A DNA stretch of 64,000 bases from a virus. Its lineage: Duplodnaviria > Caudoviricetes. The stretch spans positions 128,001-192,000 of the IMG/VR virus record IMGVR_UViG_3300013121_000027; one strand, 5' to 3'. The notes below the pieces were generated by a model. It was given only the letters and a program-made list of their open reading frames with translations. It did no database searches and had not been told where the DNA came from. Positions 2,181 to 63,773 of this stretch are shown piece after piece (positions within the stretch are counted from its first letter, which is position 1; the number at the start of each line of letters is the position of its first letter). Both the position numbers and the translations under genes were made by a program.

Positions 2181-2184
2181 CCTA

Positions 2185-2213
2185 ATTATACCTTGTTATC
2201 TTTCTATTTTCAA
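2185..2213 (-). promoter_or_regulatory. Sigma70/SigA-type promoter
   Basis: TTGAAA-N17-TATAAT on the minus strand. Confidence 0.75.
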
Positions 2214-2464: not shown

Positions 2465-2553
2465 TATTACCCTTTCGGAGTTGTTTTCTGTCAGGGCAGA
2501 ATATCACTGTTTTGATCAAAGCGCAACCTTTAATTATTACATTTTAATTACAG

Positions 2554-29910: not shown

Positions 29911-32900
29911 TTAATTTCCTCCATTCTCAGGGAGTTGATTTGTTGCGTCATTACGCCAATTATTATTCCAAATAGAGTCTTTCATTTCCACATTACCATA
30001 ACCAGTCATAACCATTTCCCAGTTAACCGTATATGGTCTACCATCTGGTAAATATTGATCAAAAGAAATGGGTGGATATTGGCTCGCATACCCCTTTAGG
30101 ATATTTAATGCTTGACCAGACTCAGTGCCAAGTGGAACATTATTAAAAACTAATCCCACATATCTATCAAAGGATTTTAAGTGCCTCTTGTCGAATCTTA
30201 TGGCTACTTTTCTATTTTCTGGATTCGCAAATTTATTACGCAGATACTGCAAAGCCATTTTTCCCAAATCGTTATCTGGAATAAAATCAGTTTCATCAAT
30301 TGATGTATACGGCTTATCGTGATATTGCAATTCGTAAGTGTTGACTATATTCATTCTTACCTTAACTACATTACCAGCTGAGAAAAATCCTCCACCATCA
30401 ACTATCTTAACGTTAAGAGTGTCACCGTCTTCAACTCCAATCCACTGCTGCCCATCGATAGTTTCTCCTTCGGATCCAATTATGATACCGGTAGCAACAA
30501 TGTAATTCTCATTTGCCACATCTTGAACGTCTCTACCAGCAATTTTAAGAATGTTTGCATTTACTTGATTAACAAACCAAGAGGTATCTCTATAGAGAGA
30601 TACAGTCTCTACTTCAGACCATCCTAATGCCCCAAGTAAATCATTCGTGGTGATTCTAAAATGTCCATTCTCCATTACATTAACCATTCCAGAACCGACA
30701 CCCATTACTGACGGAAGTAATTTGATAGTATGATTTGTGCCAACCGCAACACCTTGATAGTAACCTAATCCAGCATCCATTGGTTGCCCATCTTTGTTAA
30801 GATACTGAATATATAATCCATGTTGATCTATTAGATTTTCTTTGACCCATTCCCACCCTTTCCAAATAAGATCCCCAACAGCCCAACCGGCAGTGGCGCC
30901 GACTATAGTTCCGCCGCCAGGCTCAATAAGCGTACCAATTGCAGCACCGCCAACCGTTAATCCGGCAGTAGCAAGGGCTAAACCTATATCAAGTTTTGCA
31001 GCTTGATTCATTGCTTCGTCTCTCGCGGATAGACCTTTTATACCTTCAGCCGCAAATACGGCACCAAGATCTCTAATAACAGCGGTGTTACCATGGGTAT
31101 ATTGCCATGATCCATGGATCTGTGTGCTCATATTCTTATAGATATCATCTGTAGTGATAGATTCTGTAGCATGAGCTATTGCTCTATCTGTAGTAATGCC
31201 TAAGTAAGCACGCATGTCATCCCTAAGATTATAATTAGACATTTTAGCCCAAGCATAAGAGAGAAGGGAATATCTTACTGGATCATTAACTGAAATAAGT
31301 GGATTGGGGGTTATTGCGGTAACAAAACCGGTTTCTGGAGTAAAGTGATGAATCACTCTTTGAGCTTCAACTACGCCATACATTCTTTCATAGACATCAG
31401 CTATGTAAACCAGGTCAAACGGTCTTATATCGGGATCCCCAATAATGAGAAGCTCACCTTGATAAATTTGCTTTAGACTTTCCCTTAGATGATAAAGGGC
31501 AACTCTTCTTGCAGAAAGTTCATCAGATGATCCTGTAGAAATTTTAGCAACAGCCCTCAAAGATTCTATTGGATGCATGAGAGGTTGTAAAAACCCGAAA
31601 AATCCATTTCCAACCGCGTTATCCCAAAGTAATCCAGTTTCAACAGTTTTTTCCACTTGCCTTTCTGGTGAAACGCCTTTATCGAAGTGGACGGTTACAG
31701 GATGTTTACCACTGGTCGTCGCCGTTATAACGGTTGCAACGCCCTGTAGGTTTTCTTTAATTCCGTTGCTAAGGATGTTATCAAACGAGCTTGTGTAATG
31801 AATTCTTTGAAATGGCTCTCTTATTTCTATAACCGGTTCGCCATATTCTCTGGTGAATGGATTATCAACAAGCCTCAAAATGTCATCTTGATTTGTGCCA
31901 AGTTTATAATATATAGAATCATTTAACGATGCATTTAAAATATTTGCTTGTTTTTGATATGTTCCGCTCATGCTAAGAGCATTGCCGACTTGGGTAAGGG
32001 ACATTCTAATGGAAGAAATAAAGCCAGTTATGGTATTGGCTATTAAACCAAGAACCTGCCCAATATTTTTGTCGAACCAATCAGTTATATCTTCTATTGT
32101 TCCACTAACAAAGTTATGCGCATCTTTTCCTGCTTTTGCGTTAGCTGTCATCCATTGTTTTGTCGATTTAGAAGTAACTAATCCACTATCAGGATCGATT
32201 TCTACATCAGTCCCAACTAAAAATCTTTCGAATGCGGAAATTACTTTATCCCAACCCCAATGATTAGAGTTATCGCCAAGAGGATTTAATGTATCGCCAA
32301 GTCCATCTCCAACCTTATCAACAACAGCGATAACCCATGCTCTATTGTATGGGTCTTGCCATAAAAATCTTATAAATAAATCCCAAGTATCGTCAAACTT
32401 AGCCAGCATTTCTTGCATAGGGAAGTATTGAATGTATATGTCATTCGCTTTTTCTGATATTCCTTCAGCTTTATTTCTTAACGTCTCCCATATATCACTG
32501 GCTTCATGTAATGATCTATTTGAATTCATTGAATCAACAGTGCCAGAATAATTTTCATCAAATGCTTTTCTGGTTAATTCTCCTATTTTATCCACGCCAT
32601 ATCCAGTTTCTGGATCTATCCAAATAGGAATAGTTGAGAATTTCCAACCAAACTGAAAGGCGAAGGTGATAGGATCCCTATTTAATAAATCAGTAAAGGC
32701 ACTGCGATCAGAAGCTGACAGCGTTTCCATATAAGCTTCTACGGTGTTTTCTGGCTTATCGACTGTACCAGTAAATAAATTAGGGGCACTGCTGCTGCTC
32801 GTATACCCCTGCATCCCTGCTTTTTCCCAAGACTTTTGTAGAGCTTCCAATCCAGTTGTTATAGTTTTGTCTGCTTGATCGACTCTTTCTGCGTAACTTG

Positions 32901-35900
32901 CTATGACAGCCTCTACGAATGCTCTAATCGTTGCTTCATCCGTATTCTTCTTATCACTGGCTGTCTTTAATGCTATTTCCGCATAATCCACATCCAGAAC
33001 CACTGGAGCCCTAGTACCTAAATCTGTGCTTGCCTGAAATACTAAAAGCGGAGCGACATCCACTAATTGTTTGACCTGTTCATAAGGTAAAACGCCAAGT
33101 TCTGATTCTCCCAAAACCTTATAAAAACGTTCTAAAATGCCATTTTTATCTTGTCCAGACTGAATTAAGGCGTCTAATCTTTGAAGCTCAGCCGCTATCT
33201 CTTCTTGACTGGTCAGATACACCCCTAAATCGGTATCGCCAATAATATGATAAGGGTCAAATTGTCCCGTATCAGTAAAGTTAAGAATATCTCTTAATCC
33301 TTTGGCTTTGTCTATAGTTTTTGTTATTTGCGCGGCGCTTTTATCCATCTCGCGTCTTGTATCGGCAAGAAGACTCTGAGCAACAGCATCTGCTTTATCT
33401 ATAAGTGGTCTTAAATTTGGATTTTTAGGAATACCAGTAGTGACGGGGATTACACCAGATGTATATAGCCAATGTGGTTTACCATAGAATAAGGTTGATC
33501 TATCTTCAAATGGACGAACTGCGATAATATAATTAGGAAGAAGCGCAGCACAAAGCTCAAACATATCCCAAACGCTCTTCATATATGTAGAAGCCCTAAA
33601 TGATACCTCATCAAAACCCTGGATATCATCATCTGATGCATAGGCAGCTAACCCAAGCAAATGACCTATTGGATTACCGGGCGAAGCAAGACGACCTATT
33701 CCACCAACTAGTTTTTTACCAAGAGATAATCCCAAACCAATCTTACCATATCCCGGTATTGGAAGTATTGCTTTAAAAAGCAGATCTATCCCCGGAATAT
33801 TTCCTACAAGTGGTATTTCATGTATAAGGTGTGATGTGAAATTATCAAACGAATTAAGGGCATTCAATCCCATTTTGATTGGGGATAATAACCCATCAAT
33901 AATTCCAGAATTGCCAAATTCATTACTTGTATCTACAAATAATTTTTGAGAATTTAAATTGGCATCGTGGAGCAGATCCAAAATCTCACTATCGGTTTCT
34001 TGCCCGCCAGCAACAAGAACTTGCCATATATCCGCTATATCTTCTCGATTAGCTTCTGTATCTACCTTAATTGAATTTTGTTGTTCCTTAGTTAAAGTTA
34101 TATCACCAGTTTGCGTATCTACCGTATTAAGCTTCGCAACCTTTTGTCCATTTGCATCATTATAATAAGTTATAGCTGACGTAATTGTTATACCGGCATC
34201 AATCTGATCCCCACCCATAAATTGAGCAATTCCAGTACCATTTCCTGGATAAATATTCCTTTTAAAAATTTCATAGTCTCTTTTTGCAAATGAATTAATC
34301 CATAATAATTGACCTATCTGCATCATGGTACTATTTAGATTAAGATTCGTACCAACCGCCGCATTACTCAAAATTTTAGCTATGTCAACACTTGCACTTA
34401 TAGTAGGACCTATAAGTCCAGTAAATCCGGTAGTATCAGCCGTGCTTTGCATAGCTTCCCCCACCTTACCGAGAACTGTAGCGGTATCCTGACCTTCATT
34501 ACTTGACATTGGTTCATATAGCATAGAACCAAAATGTCTTATGCCAAATCTTGAATCAGAGAAAAGAACACCTTTAGATCCCCAAGAAACCCATTCCTTA
34601 AACTTACTTGAACCCATCGTTAATAATCTAACGATCAAGTCTCTTGGTTCTGACATCCATAGATTAGACAATCCGCCGTCAAGCTTACCGCTACTACCTT
34701 TGGGATCATTTGTATTAACTAATCCACTAAACTCAACAGCATCAGATTGAGCAATAATAGTCATTATATCGCCAGGTTCGACTTCCGTAATAACGCCGTT
34801 GAAAATAGTTTGAAGGGCGTTAGGGTTAGCGGAATACCCTGCTCTTAAATGGATTCTTACTCCAGGCTTTAGTCTAATATTATTGATCTCGAAAATCGTA
34901 TCCTTTAATCCACTCTCTATATTCCTTTGACGATTTTCCATTGTTGAGATCCATTGACCTACAGCAGTTTCGTATAAGGGATCATCTTCGGTGATGATTT
35001 GTTCGCGATAGGGAGTAGTTAATTTTTGATAGATATTACTTAGTCTTAAAACAAGAGTATCTTCTAATGGCTTTTCCGATTGCGAAACAGAGAAATCTAT
35101 AACGGAATTTAGTCCATAAAAATTATCAAATAATTTGATACCAGCGAATTTTCCACCCTCATCAATTAGCCATAGCATATAGGTAGGGAATGCCCTGAGC
35201 ATTCTACCTCTTATATTCCTATAAGAATAATCTTGCATTATAGCTTCATATTGTTGATTGGGATTTTTTGCTTTATCCAAATACTCTCTTTGATAATCGG
35301 ATAGTCCAGAAAGACTTGAATCTGATTTGATATCTTTAAGATTACTGGATGCTAAATCCTCATTTAAATATGATATACCAGTCGAGTATTCAACTTCATT
35401 AGTTCTCGTATTCTTTGTTCCAAGCGCAAAAAAACCACCTTCAAAAAAGGATAGAATAGTGGCTTCTTCTTTATTGTTATCATTATAGCTTCCAAGATAA
35501 ATTGTATATTCCGGTTCGGGCATTGCATTATCGCCCTTATAATTTGGATCCATGTTATTGCCACCGCGAGAAAGATGACCGTCTGCTAATTGCCAATAAC
35601 TTGGGATTTTCCCGCCCGCATCAATTAAGTCTTTTAGTTTAGCTTCCAAATTAGTCATTTGATTAGTGAGCATATTTCGAATTGGGACATCTAAAGATCC
35701 GTCATCTGCAGATAATTGCGCCTGAATCTTGGCGATTTCCTGAATATAATTCATTGCATCTGAATCAAAACCCCACTTAAAGATGTCGGTATCGTCATTG
35801 CTCGTTTTGAATGCTCTGAAATACCAATCAGGATCAAGATGTCCTACTAATTTTCCATCTTCATCTATAATCTCCAATGGAAAATCAGGATATCCATTAA

Positions 35901-38214
35901 AAGCGCCCCATATCTGCTTAAGTCTTAGGAATGGATTTCTTTTCCCTGCTAATTCAACCATTTCACGTTGTTGATCGGAAGACAGTCTTTCGCGTTCTCC
36001 CTGCATTACATCAAAATCTATAAATGAAAGTCTAACTTTATAAACGTGCGGAAAATTAGGAACTGTTTCAGTTTCAAAATCAAGAGGTAGAACATATTTT
36101 ACTCCACATAACGCAGTTAATATATTTTTGACTCCAAGAAATCCTAATACACCATGAGCTTTTTCTATTCGCGCTAAACCATTTACATGCTCAAATAATC
36201 TTCTAAATTTAATAAGATTTTCTTCACCTATAACAGTCATGTCTACTTGAACGGTAGAATCCCCACCGCCAATATGTTGATACGTTGGTTCGTCTTGTAA
36301 TTGAACCTGTAGTCTGGCAAAATTATTAGAAAGCGAAACAGCAACACCATTAACTATACAATGAGACCAATCAACCATCATCTGATCCATTGGAACTTTC
36401 CACTCTTTAATTGTATAGTTGGCATAATTTGTACGACTATTTTTTATTTCATTGAGAGATGAATCATCTTGAAGAAGCGAACCGTAAATAGCAAAAAACC
36501 ATTCTTCCTTCAGCATTGCTCTTATTGCTGTTTCGCTACTGGTAGTTATCGTGCCGTCTCTTAAGCCATCTGTTATTTGTTTATCTATAAATTCCTGCAT
36601 TTTTTGAGGATTCATAGAATTCCAAGCAATTTTATTAGCATTGAGCCATTGTTGTAACACTTTAGCTTGATTGCGATACTTAGAATATCTATAAGCCCTG
36701 TCATAATCAACTAAACTAAACGATGGAGAATTGATTATATCTAATCCAATTAAACTTAGAACGCCATCCCAAATATCTTTTGTTATAACAAGATCTTCGC
36801 CTGGTTGTCTAAAATCTGTTGTATCTGGAGCGAAAATTCTTGATGGGTCTGAGATTGGATAATAGAATCTAAAGTTTCTACCATCGGCAATATCGTCTAC
36901 TTTACTGAATCTTGCAATTGGATCGTTTTCGATCCCAACACCACCCGAGACATTCGGAATGGGTCCTTCCATCGTCGTTGTTTTTACCTTTTCTACCAAA
37001 AATCCTTGACTGACTCTCGATTCTAATCTTGTAGCCGCACGACCCATATACTGTCTAAATTTACCCCAGTGTATAGCTTGGTCAAAGTCTTGAATCATCG
37101 GCATCAGTGGTGCATAATTGTATTTTGCTAATTCTAGATTAACAGAAACAACGAATGGAAAATCCGGGACTGTTGAAACAGTCATCCCCATAAGTGCAAC
37201 TGCATCTATATCAAATGTTCTATTTAAAAACTCATTTTTAATAGGAAGAATAGGGGAATATTTAAATTGGGTGATTAATCCCCTCAATGAAGATAAATAT
37301 GAATCAATAACATAATCAGGAACGAGTGATCTTACTGTCTGATATTTATCACCAGCTGGACCACTTAAATCTTTTCTTATAATCGGATTCGGATCCCAGT
37401 TAAAGAAATCTATATCTCTTGCCGTATCTCCTTTAAAACCCCAAATTGTTTCATGATTAGGAAAATAAAGACTAACAGTAATCGAAGTTTCGCTATGTCC
37501 GAGATTTGTTTTAGATGAGTTCTGCTGTCTTAGAGTTCCACCACTTAAAGAACCTGCCGTAAAACCTTGATGAACCGAAATGCTTGTAGGCGGAACAAAA
37601 AAAGTTGATCCACCTATTCGACATTGGTAAGGTTTTGTTAACGCTGGTCCAGTATCCTCTCTGAATTTGCCATTATTGCGAAGAAAAATATTTCTTATTT
37701 TTTTATCGGTATCAAGATAATCAAAATATCCAGTAAATCCCTCACCCATTTGCGCTATTTTAGCATTGATTTCATCTGTTATAAGATCATATGGATCTAC
37801 ATTTGGTGGAGTGCTGGCTCTTGTCGCTTTATATTGTTTATACTCTTCAAGTATATATTGAAGCCTATATCCCTTAAGTGCGCTTTGATCGTTATCAAAA
37901 CCAAATTGTGGAATATCAACTGTGGAAGTATATTTCTGAATGAGACTCATTGCGCGAGTCTCATCTGCTAAAAGTAGATCAAGCATTCGCGTTTCGTATG
38001 GATTAAGATCATCGTTCTTTATTAATTTTTGATAGGTATTTTCCGGATTTTTAGCCAACATAAGAAAGTCGTTAAAAACCACTCTAACAGCCTGTTTATC
38101 GCCCTCGTTAAGCGCAGCGTAAGAAGTATATCCTCCACTTATAAAATTAGCAGCGATATAATCTTGTAGACTTTTCGTCCTGCCTTTATCTAAATCAGTT
38201 TCTGCGTTAGACAT
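29911..38214 (-). CDS. Giant baseplate hub (gp27/gpD/VgrG-like) protein with glycine-zipper segment and C-terminal thermonuclease-like domain
   Basis: LKPGVRIHLRAGY...IFNGVITEV...AQSD and GELLIIGDPDIRPFDLVYI...VIHHFTPETGFVT hub motifs; SNase-like VEDGDT..VRM..VNTYE..FDRYVG..VNWEMV.TGYG. Confidence 0.75.
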   Translation of the reverse strand: MSNAETDLDKGRTKSLQDYIAANFISGGYTSYAALNEGDKQAVRVVFNDFLMLAKNPENTYQKLIKNDDLNPYETRMLDLLLADETRAMSLIQKYTSTVDIPQFGFDNDQSALKGYRLQYILEEYKQYKATRASTPPNVDPYDLITDEINAKIAQMGEGFTGYFDYLDTDKKIRNIFLRNNGKFREDTGPALTKPYQCRIGGSTFFVPPTSISVHQGFTAGSLSGGTLRQQNSSKTNLGHSETSITVSLYFPNHETIWGFKGDTARDIDFFNWDPNPIIRKDLSGPAGDKYQTVRSLVPDYVIDSYLSSLRGLITQFKYSPILPIKNEFLNRTFDIDAVALMGMTVSTVPDFPFVVSVNLELAKYNYAPLMPMIQDFDQAIHWGKFRQYMGRAATRLESRVSQGFLVEKVKTTTMEGPIPNVSGGVGIENDPIARFSKVDDIADGRNFRFYYPISDPSRIFAPDTTDFRQPGEDLVITKDIWDGVLSLIGLDIINSPSFSLVDYDRAYRYSKYRNQAKVLQQWLNANKIAWNSMNPQKMQEFIDKQITDGLRDGTITTSSETAIRAMLKEEWFFAIYGSLLQDDSSLNEIKNSRTNYANYTIKEWKVPMDQMMVDWSHCIVNGVAVSLSNNFARLQVQLQDEPTYQHIGGGDSTVQVDMTVIGEENLIKFRRLFEHVNGLARIEKAHGVLGFLGVKNILTALCGVKYVLPLDFETETVPNFPHVYKVRLSFIDFDVMQGERERLSSDQQREMVELAGKRNPFLRLKQIWGAFNGYPDFPLEIIDEDGKLVGHLDPDWYFRAFKTSNDDTDIFKWGFDSDAMNYIQEIAKIQAQLSADDGSLDVPIRNMLTNQMTNLEAKLKDLIDAGGKIPSYWQLADGHLSRGGNNMDPNYKGDNAMPEPEYTIYLGSYNDNNKEEATILSFFEGGFFALGTKNTRTNEVEYSTGISYLNEDLASSNLKDIKSDSSLSGLSDYQREYLDKAKNPNQQYEAIMQDYSYRNIRGRMLRAFPTYMLWLIDEGGKFAGIKLFDNFYGLNSVIDFSVSQSEKPLEDTLVLRLSNIYQKLTTPYREQIITEDDPLYETAVGQWISTMENRQRNIESGLKDTIFEINNIRLKPGVRIHLRAGYSANPNALQTIFNGVITEVEPGDIMTIIAQSDAVEFSGLVNTNDPKGSSGKLDGGLSNLWMSEPRDLIVRLLTMGSSKFKEWVSWGSKGVLFSDSRFGIRHFGSMLYEPMSSNEGQDTATVLGKVGEAMQSTADTTGFTGLIGPTISASVDIAKILSNAAVGTNLNLNSTMMQIGQLLWINSFAKRDYEIFKRNIYPGNGTGIAQFMGGDQIDAGITITSAITYYNDANGQKVAKLNTVDTQTGDITLTKEQQNSIKVDTEANREDIADIWQVLVAGGQETDSEILDLLHDANLNSQKLFVDTSNEFGNSGIIDGLLSPIKMGLNALNSFDNFTSHLIHEIPLVGNIPGIDLLFKAILPIPGYGKIGLGLSLGKKLVGGIGRLASPGNPIGHLLGLAAYASDDDIQGFDEVSFRASTYMKSVWDMFELCAALLPNYIIAVRPFEDRSTLFYGKPHWLYTSGVIPVTTGIPKNPNLRPLIDKADAVAQSLLADTRREMDKSAAQITKTIDKAKGLRDILNFTDTGQFDPYHIIGDTDLGVYLTSQEEIAAELQRLDALIQSGQDKNGILERFYKVLGESELGVLPYEQVKQLVDVAPLLVFQASTDLGTRAPVVLDVDYAEIALKTASDKKNTDEATIRAFVEAVIASYAERVDQADKTITTGLEALQKSWEKAGMQGYTSSSSAPNLFTGTVDKPENTVEAYMETLSASDRSAFTDLLNRDPITFAFQFGWKFSTIPIWIDPETGYGVDKIGELTRKAFDENYSGTVDSMNSNRSLHEASDIWETLRNKAEGISEKANDIYIQYFPMQEMLAKFDDTWDLFIRFLWQDPYNRAWVIAVVDKVGDGLGDTLNPLGDNSNHWGWDKVISAFERFLVGTDVEIDPDSGLVTSKSTKQWMTANAKAGKDAHNFVSGTIEDITDWFDKNIGQVLGLIANTITGFISSIRMSLTQVGNALSMSGTYQKQANILNASLNDSIYYKLGTNQDDILRLVDNPFTREYGEPVIEIREPFQRIHYTSSFDNILSNGIKENLQGVATVITATTSGKHPVTVHFDKGVSPERQVEKTVETGLLWDNAVGNGFFGFLQPLMHPIESLRAVAKISTGSSDELSARRVALYHLRESLKQIYQGELLIIGDPDIRPFDLVYIADVYERMYGVVEAQRVIHHFTPETGFVTAITPNPLISVNDPVRYSLLSYAWAKMSNYNLRDDMRAYLGITTDRAIAHATESITTDDIYKNMSTQIHGSWQYTHGNTAVIRDLGAVFAAEGIKGLSARDEAMNQAAKLDIGLALATAGLTVGGAAIGTLIEPGGGTIVGATAGWAVGDLIWKGWEWVKENLIDQHGLYIQYLNKDGQPMDAGLGYYQGVAVGTNHTIKLLPSVMGVGSGMVNVMENGHFRITTNDLLGALGWSEVETVSLYRDTSWFVNQVNANILKIAGRDVQDVANENYIVATGIIIGSEGETIDGQQWIGVEDGDTLNVKIVDGGGFFSAGNVVKVRMNIVNTYELQYHDKPYTSIDETDFIPDNDLGKMALQYLRNKFANPENRKVAIRFDKRHLKSFDRYVGLVFNNVPLGTESGQALNILKGYASQYPPISFDQYLPDGRPYTVNWEMVMTGYGNVEMKDSIWNNNWRNDATNQLPENGGN

Positions 38215-38219: not shown

Positions 38220-38636
38220 TTATCCTATCTTCTTCTTAAGAATAGAAATAGAACTATCTTTTGAAGAAGTCAATCTACTATCGGACATCATTCGATATGG
38301 TGTCATATGCGAATTATTATTTCTATTTGGGGAAATATCAATCAATTTAGTTCTACTTTTCATTCTATCATGTTGATTCGTCGCATTCAAATAACCTGTA
38401 TCATTAGCTATTAGATGTGTACTCGGGGCATTCTTTAATCCAGCACTTGACCCTCTATTTAATTGCGCTCTTGACTTTGCAATGCGCGCAGGACCCTCAC
38501 TCGCTGGTCGAGATACTTGTTGCTGTTCAGATCCAGAAGCAACATTGAGAGCTTTTTTCATAGCTGTTGGGGTGGCTTTACTTCCTATACTTGGATTGCC
38601 AACATGCCCCAAATTAACAGGTTTACCAATAGGCAT
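38220..38636 (-). CDS. Small basic low-complexity protein (possible internal virion protein)
   Basis: 138 aa, K/R/S-rich, few acidic residues; translationally close to both giant neighbours. Confidence 0.65.
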   Translation of the reverse strand: MPIGKPVNLGHVGNPSIGSKATPTAMKKALNVASGSEQQQVSRPASEGPARIAKSRAQLNRGSSAGLKNAPSTHLIANDTGYLNATNQHDRMKSRTKLIDISPNRNNNSHMTPYRMMSDSRLTSSKDSSISILKKKIG

Positions 38637-38641: not shown

Positions 38642-41600
38642 TTATCCAAGCCTTTCATTAAGAACATCACGAGACGAGTAAGCCGTTTTGCCAACGGTAC
38701 GGCGAGAGCTATATATATTAGTACGGCTTGATCCGCCAGTTATCTCACTTAAATTAATACTTAATCTATGAGGATCATATCCGCTCGATGTATTGACGGT
38801 ATACATCATTCCACCGCTACTTGTACCAGCTTGTGAAGGGTAAATAGAGGAGATGGCTTGCATGCCGACCGGATCGTAATCCTCATATGGACTACCTCCA
38901 GGAAGAAGAGGTGGTCCACCCATGTCTTCTGGTGCTGGGTTTTTCGCGAACCTATGAATTAAACCAATTCCCGCAAAAATCCCAAATCCATATACACTCT
39001 TTCTAAATACAGATTCACTCTTCCATAGGTCCTTAATTAGATCACGGTTTATCCTCGTCATATATTGTCTGCTAGCTCTTGGTACTTCTTCAGCTGCAGC
39101 ATCAGAAAGAGATCTTGCAGCAAATCTACCAGAACCTGGAGTTGGTTCATTTATTCCGACTTGCCCTTTCCGTGGGCGATATTTAGGCATTTTGTGAGGA
39201 AATGCAGACTTTAATTCATGAAACTCTGGCGAATCATTACTTACCCTTTCGATTATGTTATCTGCAAATTCAAGAACTTTATCCGAAGCTCTACTTCCAC
39301 CTTCTTGTACCATATTACGTTTAACAGCCTTAGCCATTTGAATCATAGATCCTCTTATCTTTGGATCATATATTTGAGCCGCATCAATGTTACCTAAGCT
39401 ATTAAGAATCTCAAGTCCGCGTTGTATTGGGTCATCTATAGCATTTGCTTTATTACCTATTACAAATCTACCTTTTCTTGTTCCCCTAAAAAATGTTCGT
39501 ATTTCGTCAAAACTTTCTATTCCGCGTAATTGAGCTATAGTTTTTGGTCGTTCAATCAATTCTCTTCGTGCTTCAGCAAGCATATCAATCATCGATCCGC
39601 CACCATCTAATCCCATATCTTCTAAGACGTTAAGGCTTATCTTGTTTTCTGCTGCTAATTTATCTATAGCTAAAATTTGTCTCTTTAATTTATGTGTTGG
39701 TATTAAGACGGTTTTATTCTTTTTGACAACCTTCTTAAAAAGCCCCATATCGTATAACTTACGAACTGCTGCAGTATGAAGTTCATCTATACCACCGGCT
39801 AAAAATTCTTCTGCACTGTCAAACTGCTCCATACCATGAATGTTCCACCGTTTCGATAATTCTGCCTCAAATGATTTCATATCAGAAATAAATTTGGAAG
39901 CATTTACTTCCTCTTCAGTGGTAAATACTAACCCACTCAATGACTTAACACGCTCTTCAAAAGCGGTTTCAATAACCGGTTTACCCATATCTGTAATATG
40001 CTCACCCAAAATAGCTTTACCTTTATAGAAGCCAGACATAGTACTTTCCTTGGTGACTTCCGTAATAGATTTAATTTTCCTTTTGGCGCCAATTTGTTCA
40101 TTATACGCTTGAATAAATCTTTGTTGAAACGGTTTTGACATTCTTGCCTGTGCCATAGCGCTATCAAAGCCAATATTAAGTTGTTCTGCGCCTACTGGTA
40201 AACTCCTATTATATCTTTCGATTAAGGCTTGAGCTTTAGCAAATGCAGCGCCAAACTTTCTTGGATTGTTGTGTAATATTTCCCTTTCCAAATCGTCAAT
40301 AAGAAAAATATTACCTGTTTTTTTAATTTCGTCTACTGTGACTTCATACTCTACGAATTGTTGTTTAGAGCTTTTTGCTATCTTAATAATTTGCGCTCTT
40401 AATTCTGGTGGAAGATTGCTATTATTTAATATATCATCCCAAGCATTGTCTAAAGCAAACCTGGCATCAGTTAATTGTCCAAGAAGTCCATTAGCTCTGG
40501 CTTCTATTCCAAGTCTATCCTCTATAAGTTTATCTAATGTTTTGCCTCTGGTTAGTCGATCTAATTCTGCTCTTTGTTCTCTGGATAAACTTGTAGCTTT
40601 AAATCTTGTATATAGGGCATCGTGCCACTCATCAGTTCCGGCAGAAATCTCAAAAGGAAAAGCTCCAGCATTGGCTCCAAGAGTCCTTTCCAGTTTTCTT
40701 TCTGAAACAATAGCGTTAGCAGCGGCGTTAGCTCGCTCCGTTGGAGTACCCCCACCAAAAGAACGACTTGTGTGGTACGAATGAGAAGCCGATGGCGTAG
40801 TATATCTATTCATAGATTCAACAGTTGTCCTCATACCTTTAGGACTTGTGTTTAGAGGCATGGCGGGACTTCCATCAGCCAGAGGGGCAGCTGGAGAGAA
40901 AGTAGACGCTAAATCAATTTTAGCTATTCTCTTATTTCTCATCATTAAAAGGTGCAACTTGCTTCGGGTACTATCCAATTCAAAGGTTGCTGTTCTAATC
41001 TTTTGAGTCAATCTTTTATAAGTTTTTTCGTAATCTGGAAGCCTTGTATCTAATGCTTCTCGCTGTAAAAAAAGATTTTCTATTTCAGATGAAAGCTTTC
41101 GCTCTTCAACTGATAACTGTCTAACTTGATTATAATTTCCTCTTAAAATATCTTTTTTACCAGATTTTGATATTTCAATATCGGGTTGATCAAAAATTCT
41201 TCTAAATGCTGAACTTTGATCTTCCGAAGTTAAATCAACATTATAATAACCAAACTCACCCTTTTCGGTTGGATCTCTTATACCGAGAGCAAAAATGCGA
41301 CGAGTTTTTTCATCATACTGCATGTGCCAAACGATACGATCGTCAAGGTCATGTCCACCGTGAAGCATACTGTGCGTTAAGAAAGATCCAGGATGTATGT
41401 GAGCAACGCCCTTCTCAAATCGAACCGTCCCAGGATCTACAAGATCTTTATTCGCCTCAGGAAAAACCGTTAAGTGAGTACCTACCGATCCCCTTATTGG
41501 GAAGTTCAGATTATAATTTGGAATTGACCTGCCACCTAATATTATTTGCTCATCATTTTTTACGGTTAAGAAATGATCTTGTACCGCATCTAATAATTGA

Positions 41601-43054
41601 GATGTTATTCGAGGGCTTTGATTTATATCTAAACCAGAATCCAAAGTTGTCTTTATCCTTTGGGCAAATGCTCTGGAACGCATTTTTTTTGCTATGACGG
41701 TTTCGTTATCCTCTGGTAAAATTTCCATTTCAGATAATTCATTAATGAGATTCCTTATTCCTGGAGTAATTTTTCCATTTTTGATATCGCTTATTAACTC
41801 ATTGATAACGATTTTGGATTCGTTAACAAAGGAAAAATTATCCCCAAAAAGTCTACTGTGTGCGGATAAACTTAAAATGTTAGTTCTACCCTGTTTTGGT
41901 ACTCCGTGACTTTCAAAAGATAAGAAGTAAGTTCCGCGTAATTCGCGTTTTTTATCTGCGCTGGAAACAAAAGCGTGTGTATTTGCAAATCTTTCCTTTG
42001 ATAATCTAAAAATCTTCCTAAAAACTTCCTCATTCTCCTCCATAATAACACCGGCATCGCCTTTATAGTTAAAATCTTCGGACACCATTCGGATATTAAC
42101 TCTTCCGGTAGAAAACATTGATTTTCTTTGTTTTGTAATTTCTTCTCTTATTGTTTTCGCTGTGGCAAGATGCTTTGCTCGTTCAGTCAATGGAAGTCTG
42201 GAGGCTTGTGCCTCTATCGAATTTGCTTCTTGTTCTAAATTAGAAAACATTTGTTCTACAGTTCTTCTATTTAAAAGAACTTCACCATCGTACATTTTTT
42301 CAAATGCTGTCTTCCTACTTATTTTTTTTGTACCAGGTGCTGTACTCGCGATAAAAGAATCAACCAATCTACCCGCGTCAGGGTTAAAAGCTTCAGCTAC
42401 TCTTTTTGGATTAAAATGGTGCACGCTAATAGGCGTATCTGCCATAGAAAAAACCCGATCAGATAAGAAAACGCTTAATCGCTTAGAGAGGCTATCGCTT
42501 TTCTCAAAAACGGTTGGGAAAGCATTATGATCAGATAGAACTTTCTGTACCTCCGCTATTGTCAACCTTTTATTTCCAGAAGTAACATCTAAATGGACCA
42601 ATTTTCCATTATTAAACCTTGGGACTCCATATATTTCTCCTGTAGGAGATTTTATTTCACCTAAAACAGTTTCAGCAGTGTCTTTATTTAAATCCCAAGT
42701 TCTAACAGTTGGAGTATATCCTAATCTATCGAATAACATAGCCAATCTATTGGTGGCTGCTCCAACATATTCGTTTTCTAAAAGATTAGAAGAATACGTT
42801 CTTGTGCTTCTTAAAGGTCCTGATCGATAAAATACGTCGTGCCATTCTTCAAAGGACATGGCTTTCTTACCAGTTGGACCAAAAGTAAATTTAATTTGAT
42901 TACCATCTTGAACCAATTTGGTTTGCGGATAAAATTCTTCAAGAATTAAATCAACGGAGCGTTTAACATTTGAATCTGTAAAATATCTACGGATATTTGG
43001 GTGATAGATTAAATTCTTTAATCTTTCATCGTGTCTAAAATTAGGGATTGCCAT
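38642..43054 (-). CDS. Putative single-subunit two-barrel (YonO/QDE-1-like) RNA polymerase, probably virion-associated
   Basis: Ordered motifs YDGEVLLN, NIR...YKG, SSADKK, RTNIL, HGGHDLDD, GIRDPTEKGE, LLGQLTD, VDEIKKTG; C-terminal hydrophobic helix. Confidence 0.65.
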   Translation of the reverse strand: MAIPNFRHDERLKNLIYHPNIRRYFTDSNVKRSVDLILEEFYPQTKLVQDGNQIKFTFGPTGKKAMSFEEWHDVFYRSGPLRSTRTYSSNLLENEYVGAATNRLAMLFDRLGYTPTVRTWDLNKDTAETVLGEIKSPTGEIYGVPRFNNGKLVHLDVTSGNKRLTIAEVQKVLSDHNAFPTVFEKSDSLSKRLSVFLSDRVFSMADTPISVHHFNPKRVAEAFNPDAGRLVDSFIASTAPGTKKISRKTAFEKMYDGEVLLNRRTVEQMFSNLEQEANSIEAQASRLPLTERAKHLATAKTIREEITKQRKSMFSTGRVNIRMVSEDFNYKGDAGVIMEENEEVFRKIFRLSKERFANTHAFVSSADKKRELRGTYFLSFESHGVPKQGRTNILSLSAHSRLFGDNFSFVNESKIVINELISDIKNGKITPGIRNLINELSEMEILPEDNETVIAKKMRSRAFAQRIKTTLDSGLDINQSPRITSQLLDAVQDHFLTVKNDEQIILGGRSIPNYNLNFPIRGSVGTHLTVFPEANKDLVDPGTVRFEKGVAHIHPGSFLTHSMLHGGHDLDDRIVWHMQYDEKTRRIFALGIRDPTEKGEFGYYNVDLTSEDQSSAFRRIFDQPDIEISKSGKKDILRGNYNQVRQLSVEERKLSSEIENLFLQREALDTRLPDYEKTYKRLTQKIRTATFELDSTRSKLHLLMMRNKRIAKIDLASTFSPAAPLADGSPAMPLNTSPKGMRTTVESMNRYTTPSASHSYHTSRSFGGGTPTERANAAANAIVSERKLERTLGANAGAFPFEISAGTDEWHDALYTRFKATSLSREQRAELDRLTRGKTLDKLIEDRLGIEARANGLLGQLTDARFALDNAWDDILNNSNLPPELRAQIIKIAKSSKQQFVEYEVTVDEIKKTGNIFLIDDLEREILHNNPRKFGAAFAKAQALIERYNRSLPVGAEQLNIGFDSAMAQARMSKPFQQRFIQAYNEQIGAKRKIKSITEVTKESTMSGFYKGKAILGEHITDMGKPVIETAFEERVKSLSGLVFTTEEEVNASKFISDMKSFEAELSKRWNIHGMEQFDSAEEFLAGGIDELHTAAVRKLYDMGLFKKVVKKNKTVLIPTHKLKRQILAIDKLAAENKISLNVLEDMGLDGGGSMIDMLAEARRELIERPKTIAQLRGIESFDEIRTFFRGTRKGRFVIGNKANAIDDPIQRGLEILNSLGNIDAAQIYDPKIRGSMIQMAKAVKRNMVQEGGSRASDKVLEFADNIIERVSNDSPEFHELKSAFPHKMPKYRPRKGQVGINEPTPGSGRFAARSLSDAAAEEVPRASRQYMTRINRDLIKDLWKSESVFRKSVYGFGIFAGIGLIHRFAKNPAPEDMGGPPLLPGGSPYEDYDPVGMQAISSIYPSQAGTSSGGMMYTVNTSSGYDPHRLSINLSEITGGSSRTNIYSSRRTVGKTAYSSRDVLNERLG

Positions 43055-46000
43055 TTAAAAACTCCCAGCATTCAACTGCAATATATTGCCAGAAAATGGA
43101 GTAGGTGACACAGAAACAGAACCACTTATACCATTATCAAATAAGAATCTTTTTATTTGAGCCCTTGTACTAAATCCGCCGCTTCTCTTATTGTAGTCTG
43201 GGTAAGCGGGATTTAATAAATTAGCTTCTTGTACTTGTTGCGGATAATAACCCATTTGCGCAAGATCCAATCCTAAACTCTGAGCCATTTTTATCTTTAG
43301 AGTATCAGTGCTTATTCCACTTGTCCATATATCAGAATCAGGTGGCGGAAGTTCGTGTTCGTTAAAATACTCTCTAAGATCTGGCTTTTCTTCTACTGGC
43401 ATACCCCAAGCCGCCTCAAGCATTCTTCTTTCTAATCTTGGTGCAGTTGAAAGGATCTGCTGCTTTTCTTCTTCAGGGGCATACAGCATGGCTCTAAAAT
43501 GTTCTCTTTTTCTCTTTGGAACAGCCATAGCTAATTTCTCTGGAGTAACTTTATCAAAATCCATTCCATACATAGTAGTATTAGCCTGATTCTGGAAAAG
43601 TTGTGCAGATTGCAAATCGCCAAGTCTTTGAGCTTGAGAGGCTAATCTTGATGATCTTACATACTCAAATATATCTGCATATTCTTCAATGCTTGCTTGT
43701 TGTTTTCTATACATTGGAATATATCTATCGCCAGTAATACCTTCGTAGGCATTGCCGAGAGCTGAGGAAGCCAATCCCATAGTACCACCAATAACGCTAC
43801 CAATAGCGGCTGAACGAGAGCTTGCACCGAACAAAGCACCGAGAACACCGCCAGCTGAGGCGGCGGCGAGCGGATTTCTTTGTGATGCTTTGTGCATTGC
43901 TGGTTTAATGAAGCTTTGGATTGGATTTTCCCAAGATGGGAAAGTCGCACCGTAAACATTATTCCTTTCCCAATCTTCCACTGCTGTTCTTGGCGTACCA
44001 AGTTTAGTGTTAAGATAGGTATCTCTGTGAGTTAGCCATTCCCAAGTCCTACCTATAGTAAAAGATGCTGGGTGTTTAAGCATTTGATCTGGAGAACTAT
44101 ACTTATATTCATATGGCGTAAACTCATTTTTAGTTCTCATAGCTTCAACTTGAGCTCTTGTTAATGAGACTTGAGCGCTTTCTGCAGTGGAAAGATTACC
44201 TCTTTTAATCAAAGTATCTATATATTTATATTCTTGCGACCAAGGAGCAATATCTCCTAGGATGTCATGAACATTTACTAATCCCAATTTGCCTGTTGCG
44301 TCAGGAAACATTTGATGAGTTCGAGCATAACCAATACCAGGCAATCTCATTTCCGCATCAGGAACGGCATTATATGGATCACCGCTCTTAATGTTAGCTA
44401 ATGGGTAATCTACACCGGGTAGCCATGGGTATCTCTTTCCCATTGCGTTAGGTATATTATTGATATAGTTCATACCTGCAGGTTCTTTTGGTACGAATCT
44501 ACGAATGATTTCTGAGATTTCAAAGTTAGAATACTTACCCTCGATTGGTAGAGGTAGATCTCCCAAGCCTCCAATCTGCATATTCCAAAAACTTCTATTA
44601 GATGAATACCCTCGTGATGCTGGTTCAAGAACAGATTTTTGCGGAGTTAAATCCTTATTTCCAATACCGAATCCTTCCCTAACAGATGCGGCAGCGAAAC
44701 CATAAATACCAAAGAGTTCTTGAGATTGGAATCCAAGACGTCTTGCCGACATATTTATGGTTCCATAATCGAGGGTGCCACCAGCGGAAACCACTCTTGG
44801 GTTCATCTGTCCACGCTTTGTCGGTGTTGCATAAGCTAAATTAGAATACGATGTATTCATACCAGAGGCGGTTTGTCTAACCAAAGAGGATGCGGTTCCT
44901 CGTGGATTCGCATAACCCATTCCGCCATAAAATGGCGCTATAGAAGATGTCGCGCCGGTATATCCTGCATTTATATTAGAGAGTGATCTACCGGCGACAT
45001 ATCCACTATAAGAAGATTGTCCACCACCATAAGATTCCTGTCCTTGTCCTATACCTCCGCTATATGGGAAATAGGCACCTGATTCTCCAACTGGCTGATA
45101 TTCACTCAGGATTTGCGACATTTCTCCGCCATGCATTCTACGACGCGGCTTTAATACTCTTCCTATAGTCGCATTAAGGGCTCCAGTTAATGGTCCCCAT
45201 GGACCAGTAAAATAATCACCAGTTAATGGATAAGGACGCGAGTTATAATCTTCTCTTTCTCTTCTATATGGATCTAATGGTTTTAATGGCGAAAAATCAT
45301 ATCCGAAAAGAAGCCTCTCCATAGGAGTTTCTTTCATCTCCGGTGTAAATGATGCGCCAGATTTTAAACGCTTATACCATGACGGGCGGAAGTATTGTAT
45401 TCTTCCACCGCGAAATGGCGTATTGCCAAGGATCCAGAATCGCCCTTTTCTGATTGGGACTTCGCCATTTACTAATTCATTTCTCTTTTGTTCTGCGGTT
45501 TGCCCACCAGGTATTATTCCAGCCCAAGCCGTCTGCCCAGCGGCTACAACATCTCCAGCCTTACCAAGAAAATAGGGAGAGTAAACTCTATTACCATATT
45601 TATCTTTTTCGTTAACTGCACCGCCGATAGTCCTATCGACAGCTAATGCAGTTACGCCAGCTGCATAGATTGGTAAAACCCTCTTACCAACAAAACCTCT
45701 GGCAAAAAGATCTACTGGACTCTTATATCTTGTTTCGTCAACTCCTAATCCAAAGTTTTCAAAATATCTATTAAGACGACCAATCAAGTGGGTCATCGGA
45801 ACTTGTGATCCCGACATCGCTTGTGGATCTCTCCAACTTAATCCAGCCGCACCCTTAAGAGCTCTAAGGGGATTTCTGTCAAAAGCCGTTCTAAACGTCG
45901 GCATAAAAACAGTCGAGGTGCCAGTTGGGTTATTTCTAAACGGCTTTTCATACGGTACTTGCTGCGATAGATTGCTAAACCCTCTTCTAATAAACCCTTT

Positions 46001-49000
46001 TGGATGAGCTACACGACCAGAACCTACATCCGCAAGGGCTTCTTGTACGTGTGCGCCACGCCCAAGGACTTCTTCTAAGATTGCCTTATTGTGTTCTACT
46101 GGCATCATGCCAGGTTTAAAAGTTATATTTCGAGCATGTTCAAATTCAAAACTTAAAACAGCCGCGCGTGCTTCAATTCTCTCAGCGTGTGTAATAGCGC
46201 CTTTCATATACATTGTTTCGAATTCGGTCAACAAATCCTGAATGGTAGTATCAAAACCCTGTCCCATTCCAGGAAGAGTTTTTCTCATAATGATATAATC
46301 AAAAAGTCCAGATTTTAACTCGTCTACTCTTCTATTCAACCCTGGGGATTTACTTCCTTGTGGAATTGCTAAATCCCAAACGTTTTCTTGTTTTTCTTCT
46401 TGTCTTAGAATATTTCTAACGTGCTGCTGAAGTCTACTAACTTCACGACGACTAATATTACCTTGAGCTGGAAGAGTCCCAAGGTCTTCGTCTAAAACTC
46501 GTCTGGCTACACGTGACAATATATTTCCATCAATATCAAGAATATTTGTTTTTGTCCCACCTATATTTATTTCAAACAAATCTTTAAATTTTGAGGATTG
46601 ACTTAATCCCCTAAGGGCTTTCATTGGTGGGATTTTGCTTCTTAATGAAGAAAAAAGTGTATTGAGTCCTTCAGAAAGCTCTGGCGTTATACTACTTGGG
46701 TCAAATCCCGGATGATTTATCCATCCAGCAGCCGCTCGTGGATTTTTAAGAGCACCTTCTTCACCCCTAATTCTACGCTTCCATCTTCCTAAAAGGCTTT
46801 CTCTTCCAAAAAATACATTATTCTCTTGATCGGTGCTAACATCAAAGGATCTCTTCAATCCAGTTTGATATTGAGATGATGGAACGTCCTTCTGTCCAAG
46901 AATATTACCTAATGAACGTCCCAACATCGTATCTGTATTGGTTGTAAATGGTCTAAATAATCCACGATATTGTTGAACTCTAACTTCTCCACTGATGTTA
47001 GAGAATATTCCAGCAACACGACCCTTTGATGCTCTTGCTGAAGATTTCAAATATAAATAAAAATTAGGATCTACAAATTCTGCGCCAGCCGCTTTCGCCT
47101 CAAGCTTTCCAATCATAGCTATTGGCTGAGTTGATCTACCTGGCGCAACAATAACAGATGGACTATGCCTCATAGCCCTGAATGATTGATATCCACCAGC
47201 TTGAAATGGCTTTAGTTTAATAAGGGGAAGTTGAAATTCTTCTTGGAATTTATCAAATCCAGAAAGAAGATTACGACCAACTCGACCAAAGTCTAAAATT
47301 CTTCCAGATTTACTTACAACCACCTTGTTAATTCTGAGGTCAGATCTACCCATGGCAGCTGCATCCGATGGCGATTGTCCTGGCGCTCTCCTGCTAATAA
47401 AGTCTGATATCTGATCTTGTACTGCCTTTTTATTGCCACCAAAATAACCGCCAACCAAAGCCTCTTCAACGCTAAATGGTCTAAATCCAAATATATTCGC
47501 ACCACGTGTTGTCCATGGGGCGGCTATTTCTTTTTTATCTATTAAGAAGCCACGTAGTTTTTTAAGATTATTTGGATCAAATCCCTTACCTAATAGATGT
47601 CCCTCTAAGATAGAAGTTGGTACTAAGTTGCCGGAAGAGTCGACTGTTGAAATTCCAAGTCTTTGTGCTGAACGTCTTATTAAGAAGTTTCTACGAGCTC
47701 CAAGTTGAGAATCGTCAAAGAGTTCATGAGCTTTTTTGATTGGCGATAAAGCTTTTACCGCTTCGGGAGCTATTAAAGAATCGTGAGCGACATTCCAAGC
47801 TCCAGTTATTTCGGCATGAAGACCTCTTTGGACCTGTCTACTGGCAAATATATTATCTGCCCTACTAACGCCCTCTTTAAAGGAATCGAATCCAGTCTTA
47901 CCAGATTTTAAAGAAATTCCATGTGCACCTGCAGACTCGACTACATGATCCCACCAAGCAGTAAGTTTTTCTTCTTCAGTTTTAAAAGCAAGATTACCTT
48001 GCCATTCTTTAGAGGTAAATTTAAATCTCCCAATAAAATCACTTCCTTCACCAGCCGTGCGTGAAAGAGGTAATGGAGAAATATTTTGTGACTCTTTTAC
48101 AAATTTTAGAGCAGCTTCCTTAGATAAACCAGATGTCTTTTCTAACTCTTCTATTAAGACATCTTTGTAATAGTCTGTTTGTCTGCCAGTATAAAATGCG
48201 CTTTTGGTCCAATCTGGATTCTTTGATCCATTGGGTAGTAATGGACCACCACCACCCAACGTAACGGTATCTCTTGCATATTTTTCAAGGTGCGTTCCGC
48301 TACCTTTATCCATAAAGTTTAAAAGGTCTAAGTACTTTTTGGGATGATCCTTAGCTATCTGCTGTAGTGTTGTAGCTCCATGTAATACATCTTGATATAG
48401 GTCATAAGTTTTTCCTATATCTGTAAAAGATTTTCTTCCTTTTGAGATTGCTGAACCCATTCCTTTAAACGGTCCAGGAAGTAGGTCAATAGCTTGATTC
48501 CTATTACTTTTATTTGAAATAATATCTTTTGCCTGTAAGAAAAGCCTTCTTGCATATCCAGAATTAGCATATTGTGGAGTGTTCGTTAGAACGGCATTCG
48601 CTCTTCTTTTTGCGAATGATTTTAAGGTCAAATTATTCTCAGCGGCATCATCTATCATAGATGAAAAGGCGCCAAGAGATTGATGAGAAAACCTAATGGT
48701 TTTATTCATCATTTCGCCAAAGTCAACGCCCATTTGTCCAAGAATAGTTCTTGTTGCTATAAAGTTTAAATTCTTTTGAGTTCCAGGGCGGGACATAGCT
48801 TGCATCGCGTAATTACGATAACTATTTTGAATAGTCCCAGCACCAAGTTCAAATGGTAAAACGTTAAACGTTAGAGTCTTGAGTGTTTGATATGAAAAAT
48901 CGCCCAAAACATCAAATGGATTAGCCCAATTAACTTTATTTCTTGGATTTTCATTTTGTCCGAGTAACGGATCAAGAACAGCTTTCTGAGATACGTAAAG

Positions 49001-51777: not shown

Positions 51778-52419
51778 TCAAAAACTGGAATTACTTGTGC
51801 TATTCGAAAAAGAAATTGTATTTATCGTAGATTGCACACCAGAACTTATAACTTGTGGATTGTACGATGTTAATGGTTGAATACCACGAGCCATATACGT
51901 ATAAACCTGTTCGGTAACGAGGTCATCTACTGACATCGTTCCACCTTCATCAACGATGGTGACGCCTAAAATTCTCATAACTGAAAATCTTCCATATTCA
52001 TTAGAAAACGTTAATACAACATCAAATGGCGGTAACATATCAGCAAGTGGAAACATTGGATTTGTTGCCAAACCAAATTGTCCAGATGCTCCATGAACTA
52101 ATTCTTTATACTGTGCAAGACGATAAAAGGCGTATGAATTAAAGACAGTAAAGACTAAACTCCCAGCTATTGTTCTTGGACCTTTAATAAATCCTCTCGG
52201 ATTAACTTTTCCAAGTATGCGAACTGGCTTATTTTCTCTGTGTATAGAATATGATATTGTTTGAAGTTCACCAAGATTAAGTGGTTTTTCTTCATTCGGT
52301 AAAATAATTTGAGCAGTTATATCTACACCAGAAAATGAATCATAAACTATGGGAGCATCGTCATATTGTTGTCTATTCTTATAGACGCCATAAGTAAACG
52401 GTTGAAGAATTTCTCCCAT
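51778..52419 (-). CDS. Tail tube paralog 2
   Basis: FSGVDITA, ISYSIHRE..PVR.LG..NPRGF.KGPRTIAGSLVF, DMLPPFDV, EQVYTYMAR. Confidence 0.8.
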   Translation of the reverse strand: MGEILQPFTYGVYKNRQQYDDAPIVYDSFSGVDITAQIILPNEEKPLNLGELQTISYSIHRENKPVRILGKVNPRGFIKGPRTIAGSLVFTVFNSYAFYRLAQYKELVHGASGQFGLATNPMFPLADMLPPFDVVLTFSNEYGRFSVMRILGVTIVDEGGTMSVDDLVTEQVYTYMARGIQPLTSYNPQVISSGVQSTINTISFSNSTSNSSF

Positions 52420-62655: not shown

Positions 62656-62661
62656 ATTGGT

Positions 62662-63758: not shown

Positions 63759-63773
63759 ATCGGCTCACCCCAA

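Follow-up and report, generated by a model that had tools for sequence, protein, structure and literature searches.

A highly divergent candidate RNA polymerase with a rearranged catalytic barrel in the tail module of an uncultured jumbo phage

Introduction

Can a two-barrel RNA polymerase (RNAP) keep its fold and chemistry while departing from the signatures by which such enzymes are recognized? This question is raised by an open reading frame (ORF) on the minus strand, at positions 38642-43054, of a 64,000-nucleotide (nt) stretch of phage DNA. This stretch, here called the window, comprises bases 128001-192000 of a 231,459-bp IMG/VR virus record (IMGVR_UViG_3300013121_000027). The ORF gives a stop-free translation of 1470 amino acids (aa), a protein that we call P0001. 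Two-barrel RNAPs are generally regarded as having kept one DxDxD loop and one barrel topology unchanged since the last universal common ancestor. An earlier note on this DNA, made from the sequence alone, had described P0001 as a putative virion-packaged polymerase with a permuted, non-canonical catalytic barrel. Our analysis indicates that P0001 is, very probably, a single-chain polymerase of a new kind, far diverged in sequence but with the same fold as cellular RNA polymerases.

A 141-bp repeat is common to both ends of the record, so the assembly is effectively circular and its start point arbitrary. Positions below are those of the window unless marked as genome positions. The ORF and all the motifs listed in the earlier note are real, and conversion between protein and DNA positions (residue 254 = nt 42295; D569-D572 = 41350-41339; R593 = 41278; G859 = 40480; D908 = 40333) showed every motif coordinate to be correct.

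Results

P0001 belongs to a previously undescribed family that is conserved in the manner of an enzyme

HMMER, run exhaustively against 1.8 billion cluster representatives (E ≤ 1e-3), returned 37 proteins including P0001 itself, nearly all of 1285-1590 aa, and a word-seeded search added two further, more distant homologues. Most of the homologues found by searching with P0001 share 24-32% identity with it (30% for two of them, 37% for another). P0001 and 38 homologues (36 from HMMER, two word-seeded) were aligned with MAFFT. These homologues measure ~1285-1745 aa, plus two fragments, and identity to P0001 across the alignment is 16-33%.

The columns of G566, G567, D569, D571, D572, R593, P595, E600 and D908 are invariant in this 39-sequence alignment. 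Those of K191, R192, D256, G257, R322, K331, G332, L858, G859 and E904 are kept in at least 86% of rows, as is the N863 column, where P0001 itself has D. K369 is kept in 30 of 38 rows (79%). Row counts are 34/38 for D256, 32/37 for R322 and 37/39 for K331, and all three residues are invariant in a family of paralogues described below. Near the C-terminus, a GPPLLPGGSxYE block (1380-1391) is conserved.

The residues of the proposed motifs are thus the best conserved across the 38 homologues, which confirms the motif observation and argues against chance. GGxDxDD...RxP is kept in all 39 sequences, and DG, KG, DxDD, RxP and D908 are all conserved; the lack of conservation that the earlier note had named as contrary evidence did not appear. 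Judged from the alignment, the pattern is that of an enzyme and falls on the residues picked out beforehand.

P0001 and both paralogues had no match in Pfam or PHROGs. A Pfam scan of all 39 family members gave coiled-coil noise only, as did phmmer and profile searches against PDB sequences, and tblastn of P0001 and the paralogue P0040 against 50,697 phage records gave no match. Pfam PF05183, the RNA-dependent RNA polymerase (RdRP)/YonO-like family, had no match in the genome at E ≤ 10 and none in the 39 members at E ≤ 1. Comparison by hhalign with the YonO-like family of phage 0305phi8-36 was not significant (probability <5%), and feature and shape searches of the ESM Atlas returned nothing informative. 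In sequence terms, P0001 lies outside every defined family.

The phages that carry this family are uncultured jumbo myophages of ~225-235 kb, known from metagenomes of sludge, wastewater and aquaculture. Contigs at least 99% identical to parts of the P0001 gene occur in metagenomes of several independent studies, including activated-sludge and aquaculture samples. A 250-nt contig identical to the gene was present in one sludge metatranscriptome run, a library that may contain DNA, so that it is no firm sign of expression.

The core is predicted to adopt the two-barrel polymerase fold

We modelled residues 180-1000 with AlphaFold2 from the 39-sequence alignment and read the model as secondary structure and structural alignment ranges. 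The model has a mean predicted local distance difference test score (pLDDT) of 87.9 and a predicted template-modelling score of 0.88. The first 16 rows of a Foldseek search against the PDB were all two-barrel RNAPs (QDE-1, crAss-like phi14:2 gp66, RDR2 and P23-45 gp96); P32 gp64 and bacterial beta' chains appeared in lower rows. In BFVD, ranks 1 and 2 went to uncharacterised proteins from uncultured phages (E 1e-13 and 2e-12), and crAss-like phage proteins came in from rank 3 on, with E 1e-5 or weaker. In two independent searches, every long match (240-400 residues aligned) came from a single superfamily, the two-barrel polymerases, and the remaining rows were helical fragments of 60-130 residues. 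The structural matches were as follows (score; aligned residues; deviation):

Maize RDR2: 10.1; 363; 4.4
QDE-1: 9.5-9.6; 329-378; 4.0-4.9
P74 gp62 / P32 gp64: 7.0-7.2; 314-317; 5.2
P23-45 gp96: 6.7; 249; 4.0
phi14:2 gp66: 4.9; 385; 5.3

In the VIA alignment, QDE-1 residue 657 corresponds to model residue 1. The two-barrel fold proposed in the earlier note is thus supported by the model. Its long PDB matches, like its best ones, are all two-barrel RNAPs, and it has the catalytic core fold of QDE-1, RDR and the multisubunit RNAPs. On the strength of the model, it is very likely, with regard to both fold and activity, that P0001 is a two-barrel polymerase whose active site is intact though non-canonical. 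Its parts, all on the minus strand, are listed here.

38642-43054 (−): whole gene, 1470 aa, candidate virion RNA polymerase (translation, homologues)
42479-42484 (−): K191-R192, near-invariant basic pair in the first core helix (conservation, model)
41870-42307 (−): first barrel, beta-subunit-like, aa ~250-395, with D256/G257, R322, K331/G332 and K369
aa 263-316: helical hairpin insertion that splits the first barrel (secondary structure of the model)
41570-41869 (−): helical connector between the barrels, aa 396-495, in a clamp-like position (helices only, pLDDT 82-92)
41234-41566 (−): catalytic barrel, aa 497-607 (conservation, model)
41339-41359 (−): predicted metal-binding loop, G566-G567-x-D569-x-D571-D572 (invariant)
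41255-41278 (−): R593-x-P595-x3-G599-E600, 'Pro-gate'-like element 24 aa past the Asp loop (invariant)
40505-41227 (−): ~240-aa insertion, a long coiled-coil hairpin and a low-complexity Ser/Thr/Pro-rich stretch; not in the paralogues
40421-40486 (−): bridge-helix candidate, aa 857-878, L858-G859-x3-N863 (D863 in P0001)
40313-40345 (−): E904-x3-D908-x2-K-x-G motif (conservation)
39200-40102 (−): C-terminal domain, aa 985-1285, mostly helical and well folded (model)
38645-39157 (−): C-terminal tail module, aa 1300-1470; not in the paralogues
38957-38995 (−): Gly-rich hydrophobic helix V1354-I1366, in the tail module
38882-38917 (−): GPPLLPGGSxYE block, residues 1380-1391, in the tail module (conserved)

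The sequence of the C-terminal domain is poorly conserved, and the domain had no specific structural match. The earlier note had misplaced the hydrophobic helix at the end of the protein: it spans ~V1354-I1366, ~100 residues before the C-terminus.

Conserved residues are collinear with the active site of QDE-1

Eight residues, described on QDE-1, are invariant in all two-barrel RNAPs: D709, R738, K743, R962, P964, D1007, D1009 and D1011 (PMC2919709). Further functional residues of QDE-1 are R671 of an auxiliary helix, which contacts the product strand, K767, L1082 and N1087 of the bridge helix, and D1116 of the trigger loop (PMC9508822). The conserved residues of the P0001 family follow the order of these functional residues. 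We infer that K191/R192 is the counterpart of R671 and that D256, R322, K331 and K369 correspond, collinearly, to D709, R738, K743 and K767. The Asp and the two basic residues of the other barrel are thus present with their order kept. By the same mapping, D569/D571/D572 would be the Asp triad D1007/D1009/D1011, and L858...N863 would match L1082...N1087, with identical spacing from L to N. E904/D908 would fall in the region of D1116, as the counterpart of the 'D-F-x-K-T-G' trigger-loop-region motif of RdRPs and YonO. This motif and 'Q-I-R..G.K-G' were confirmed in the sequences of RDR2 and of gp99 from 0305phi8-36.

Were P0001 to work as QDE-1 does at these positions, D256 from the first barrel and D569/D571/D572 from the second would hold two Mg ions, and R322, K331 and K369 would bind the RNA 3' end and the phosphates of the nucleoside triphosphate (NTP). 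The L858/N863 helix would serve as bridge helix, with E904/D908 in the trigger-loop region.

The catalytic barrel probably has a non-canonical connectivity

The earlier note had drawn attention to a DLDD triad in place of the canonical one. The triad is DxDD in every member: in 39/39 sequences of the P0001 (virion-type) family, in 41/41 sampled sequences of the paralogue type and in the third paralogue, P0041. Because it is invariant across all of these, DxDD is the normal state of the family and not decay.

The order of elements also differs. In YonO-like proteins and QDE-1, R-I-P (strand 1) is followed after ~42 aa by R-S-P (Pro-gate) and after a further ~41 aa by GGxDxDGD. The P0001 family and the paralogues have R/N-[FI]-P, ~53-58 aa, GGxDxDD, 22-24 aa and then an invariant R-[DS]-P-x3-G-E. 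As the earlier note had claimed, an RxP...G[DE] element comes after the Asp loop; it is invariant at R593, with R593-x-P595 lying 24 residues past D569. The other R-x-P lies 53 residues ahead of D569. It is variable in the virion-type family (Arg in ~60% of rows, N516 in P0001) and well kept in the paralogue family. The earlier note's motif list was correct, although this upstream R-x-P was listed there and not weighed.

From its start, the catalytic barrel contains the variable R/N516-x-P518, strands, a helix and the Asp loop. In the model, the loop leads into a strand ending at Y580-D581, which resembles the 'W-D' of RdRPs, then a tight hairpin, a strand ending at R593-x-P595 and a further strand past G599-E600. 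In the paralogue family, as in several virion-type members, the stretch from the helical connector to the upstream R-x-P holds no more than one short strand. Given this, it follows that a six-stranded barrel can be completed only by the two strands after the Asp-loop strand. With RxP...GE placed after the Asp loop, the barrel cannot have the standard connectivity, and we conclude from the model that its connectivity is probably non-canonical.

Two topologies fit. One has strand order 1-2-5-6-3-4, with the Pro-gate hairpin transposed, and the other is a 3-4-5-6-1-2 circular permutant. The neighbourhood of strands in double-psi barrels, reportedly described by Castillo et al. in 1999, is 1-5-2-4-3-6, and both topologies are compatible with this order. 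The two best hhalign alignments to the YonO-like family, both non-significant, conflict over the upstream R-x-P: one pairs it with the beta1 R-I-P of YonO, the other with the Pro-gate R-S-P. They therefore give no decision between the two topologies. The changed element order proposed in the earlier note is real; a simple circular permutation, its explanation for that order, is one of the two readings that fit.

The genome encodes two paralogues of P0001

Searching the same genome with the P0001-family profile gave two matches:

Genome 33951-36572 (+): P0040, 873 aa, E 1e-21
Genome 227348-230275 (+): P0041, ~900 aa from a probable internal start, M79, E 6e-10

Both have the same DxDD and RxP...GE as P0001, and P0040 ends in a Cys-rich, zinc-ribbon-like tail. 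P0040 has >120 homologues at 30-72% identity, a family much better conserved than the virion-type family, and the two families align by hhalign with a probability of 99.8. One P0040 homologue lies on a 224,602-bp contig, and a P0001 homologue lies on a contig of the same size. Compared with the paralogues, P0001 has in addition the 240-aa coiled-coil/low-complexity insertion and ~470 C-terminal residues, which form a folded helical domain followed by the Gly-rich hydrophobic helix and the conserved Pro/Gly block.

Both paralogues are encoded in the plus-strand early/middle block, opposite the structural genes. By homology, they are candidate non-virion polymerases, which could serve the later genes. 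The genome gave no signal for a beta/beta' RNAP subunit or sigma-70. A search for a T7-type RNAP also gave no match, but that search had no positive control. When k-mers ahead of the genes were screened for a common promoter word, only A-rich words emerged.

Genome-wide, the commonest words ahead of start codons are A-rich (of the type GAAAAAGATG) and not Shine-Dalgarno-like; P0001 has GGGAG. The A-rich words hint at a host of the Bacteroidota type. A GC-rich island (genome ~225000-231459 and 1-5000; GC 0.50-0.55 compared with 0.37 genome-wide) lies where the plus-strand block begins, and this island holds P0041. Within the window, local GC rises to 0.53 at 62001-64000, compared with ~0.37-0.40 elsewhere.

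P0001 is encoded within a contractile-tail module

The minus-strand block around P0001 is a contractile-tail module. Read in order of transcription, it has two sheath paralogues and a LAGLIDADG homing endonuclease, then the tube protein, one protein of 318 aa and a pair of small genes that hold the tail-chaperone position. A 2158-aa protein, P0001, a 138-aa protein and a 2767-aa lysin/endonuclease-like protein come next, and after these small genes of the baseplate, a wedge protein of the gp6/J type and several further giant virion proteins. The neighbours of P0001 are:

43055-49531 (−): 2158-aa protein; C-terminal ~900 aa homologous to ORF145 of 0305phi8-36 (32% identity)
38220-38636 (−): 138-aa protein, low-complexity, basic, Ser/Asn-rich and probably disordered; 5-nt spacer
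29911-38214 (−): 2767-aa baseplate hub / cell-wall lysin, homologous to ORF147 of 0305phi8-36

ORF145 of 0305phi8-36 is a virion protein by mass spectrometry. The TAA stop of its homologue abuts the P0001 ATG, with GGGAG 9 nt upstream, and P0001 is translationally coupled to it. The earlier note had placed the gene between a tape-measure-like gene and the hub, and homologues of ORF145 and ORF147 do flank it. The three relatives examined, one of them on a 224.6-kb contig, share the order [~2100 aa][polymerase][134-148 aa][2700-3700 aa], and in each of them the gene next after that of the polymerase encodes 134-148 aa. P0001 is thus encoded, in a conserved order, in the late/structural block, as are virion-packaged RNAPs such as those of N4, crAss-like phages (gp66), P23-45 (gp96) and phiKZ.

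The slot between ORF145 and ORF147 in 0305phi8-36 is taken by ORF146, a putative tape-measure protein; here it holds P0001 and the 138-aa gene. P0001 had no similarity to ORF146 (BLASTP E 0.4 at best; C-terminal profile E 1.4), and its model is a globular alpha/beta core, not the helical rod of a tape measure.

Some other features of the block are of note. Besides its lysin region, the 2767-aa protein has a C-terminal endonuclease-like match (phrog_452, E 7e-5) at residues ~2594-2691. The LAGLIDADG gene (53027-53911, −) separates the second sheath gene from that of the tail tube. The probable tail-tube protein (51778-52419, −) scores as 'major head protein' in PHROGs, a label that apparently comes from the record of 0305phi8-36, where the note on the homologue says 'tail tube'.

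Discussion

We consider it probable, with moderate confidence, that P0001 is an active single-chain, DNA-dependent two-barrel RNAP with a rewired barrel, carried in the virion and accompanied by two non-virion paralogues. P0001 would be made late, together with the tail-lumen protein to which it is translationally coupled, and packaged in the virion via its extra C-terminal ~470 aa. Ejected with the DNA, it would transcribe the first genes, including those of both paralogues (873 aa and ~900 aa), which would then succeed it in later transcription, a division of labour known from P23-45, phiKZ/AR9 and crAss-like phages. By analogy with these phages, one packaged and two intracellular polymerases may be the simplest scheme. 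Virion packaging is suggested because of gene position, conserved synteny and analogy; the context and the extra C-terminal part are circumstantial evidence that fits a tail-assembled, ejected protein. On this analogy, we lean slightly towards P0001 being the virion polymerase of its phage lineage, with roles in virion delivery and early transcription.

Several observations weigh against such an enzyme. The DxDxD signature of the superfamily is absent, three acidic residues being kept with the third shifted by one position, and so is an invariant R-x-P ~35-45 residues ahead of the Asp loop. The Foldseek E-values against the PDB are weak (best, 5e-3), template-modelling scores are low, profile-profile comparisons were non-significant and the ESM Atlas shape search was uninformative. 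The C-terminal part has no similarity to ORF146 or anything else, and is unlike known ejection or tape-measure proteins. Nevertheless, although P0001 fails two textbook signatures (DxDxD; R-x-P ahead of the Asp loop), it very probably keeps the fold and the chemistry.

These points bear unequally on the alternatives. If P0001 were not a polymerase, its structural matches would reflect a common beta/alpha arrangement or an artefact of the model, and the protein would be some other Mg-dependent enzyme or have a fold of its own. The weak scores and uninformative searches would be expected in this case, but all long matches in two independent searches come from one superfamily, and six conserved motifs are collinear with functional residues of QDE-1, RDR2 and YonO-like proteins, making this very unlikely. 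We find it highly improbable that P0001 is a structural tail-lumen or ejection protein of polymerase descent that no longer polymerises, exapted as a scaffold or a DNA-binding 'pilot'. Its place in the slot of ORF146, the non-canonical DxDD triad and the loss of the upstream Arg in P0001 and ~40% of the family might all be read in this way. However, the expected metal, NTP and RNA residues are all invariant or nearly so at 16-33% overall identity, and DxDD and RxP...GE are also invariant in the far better conserved paralogue family.

All of the evidence for a polymerase fold applies equally to an active two-barrel RNAP that is not packaged, a late enzyme for late transcription or replication priming whose gene is in the tail operon by chance. 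The unfamiliar C-terminal region is in keeping with this, as is gp99 of 0305phi8-36, an RdRP-like protein whose gene adjoins the terminal repeat and which, in contrast to the structural proteins annotated by mass spectrometry in that record, bears no note as a virion protein. Yet the position of P0001 is strictly conserved and coupled, inside a block of sheath, tube, chaperone, lumen-protein and hub genes, and its ~470-aa C-terminal part and 240-aa insertion are found in neither paralogue. Moreover, the P0001 family evolves much faster than the paralogue family, and two other paralogues could already serve intracellular transcription. We therefore regard an unpackaged enzyme as unlikely, and return to the virion-carried polymerase.

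If P0001 is such an enzyme, a large, constrained family with DxDD and a transposed R-x-P would show how far a two-barrel active site can be rebuilt, and would let the role of the Pro-gate loop be studied in a natural experiment. Pfam, PHROGs and HHalign do not detect the family, and hence jumbo phages scored as RNAP-less and host-dependent may encode their own transcription machinery. A virion RNAP that rides with a tail-lumen protein, so far found in the siphovirus P23-45, would extend to contractile-tailed jumbo phages related to 0305phi8-36. More tentatively, and as something we hold possible rather than probable, the three paralogues may form a new deep clade of two-barrel RNAPs with a rewired barrel, the first in the superfamily, in a contractile-tailed jumbo phage lineage that is fully independent of host RNAP and delivers the virion copy through its tail, beside the tape-measure-like protein.

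Comparison with known systems

QDE-1 and RDR2 (PDB 2J7N, 7Y7P, 7W82, 7EU0) have no detectable sequence similarity to P0001. They have D-Y/L-D-G-D, whereas P0001 has DxDD and an invariant RxP after the Asp loop. P0001 further differs in its large insertions (aa 263-316 and 610-850), phage tail-module context and C-terminal extension, and its template, unlike theirs, is presumably DNA.

YonO (SPbeta) and gp99 of 0305phi8-36 (PF05183) are two-barrel enzymes of phages that consist of a single chain, as P0001 very probably does. Among cultured phages, 0305phi8-36 is the nearest structural relative of the P0001 phage, with virion proteins shared at 23-32% identity, and a search of it with the A1 profile found no homologue. 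The motifs of gp99 and P0001 are collinear by eye and in one non-significant hhalign alignment. However, gp99 matches Pfam RdRP at E 1e-20, while the P0001 family has no match, and its order is canonical: R-I-P, then R-S-P, then GGxDxDGD. Its gene (0305phi8-36 208026-211682) lies just inside the right terminal repeat and not in the tail module, a position comparable to that of P0041, which lies where the early block begins.

In P23-45, gp96 is a virion RNAP fused to the tape measure, and gp64/gp62 is the non-virion RNAP (PMC10770324). P0001 is instead a separate gene, coupled to a lumen protein, in a contractile-tailed jumbo phage with two non-virion paralogues and a different active-site order. 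The virion RNAP of crAss-like phi14:2, gp66 (PDB 6VR4), is carried as cargo by a podovirus; its triad reads DFDxD, and it has no sequence relationship to P0001. Virion and non-virion multisubunit RNAPs are known from phiKZ/AR9 (PMC7598289). These are split beta/beta' homologues, detectable with Pfam, and none such is present in the P0001 genome; the likeness would lie in the strategy, in which a jumbo phage packages one RNAP set, uses a second inside the cell and does not depend on the host enzyme.

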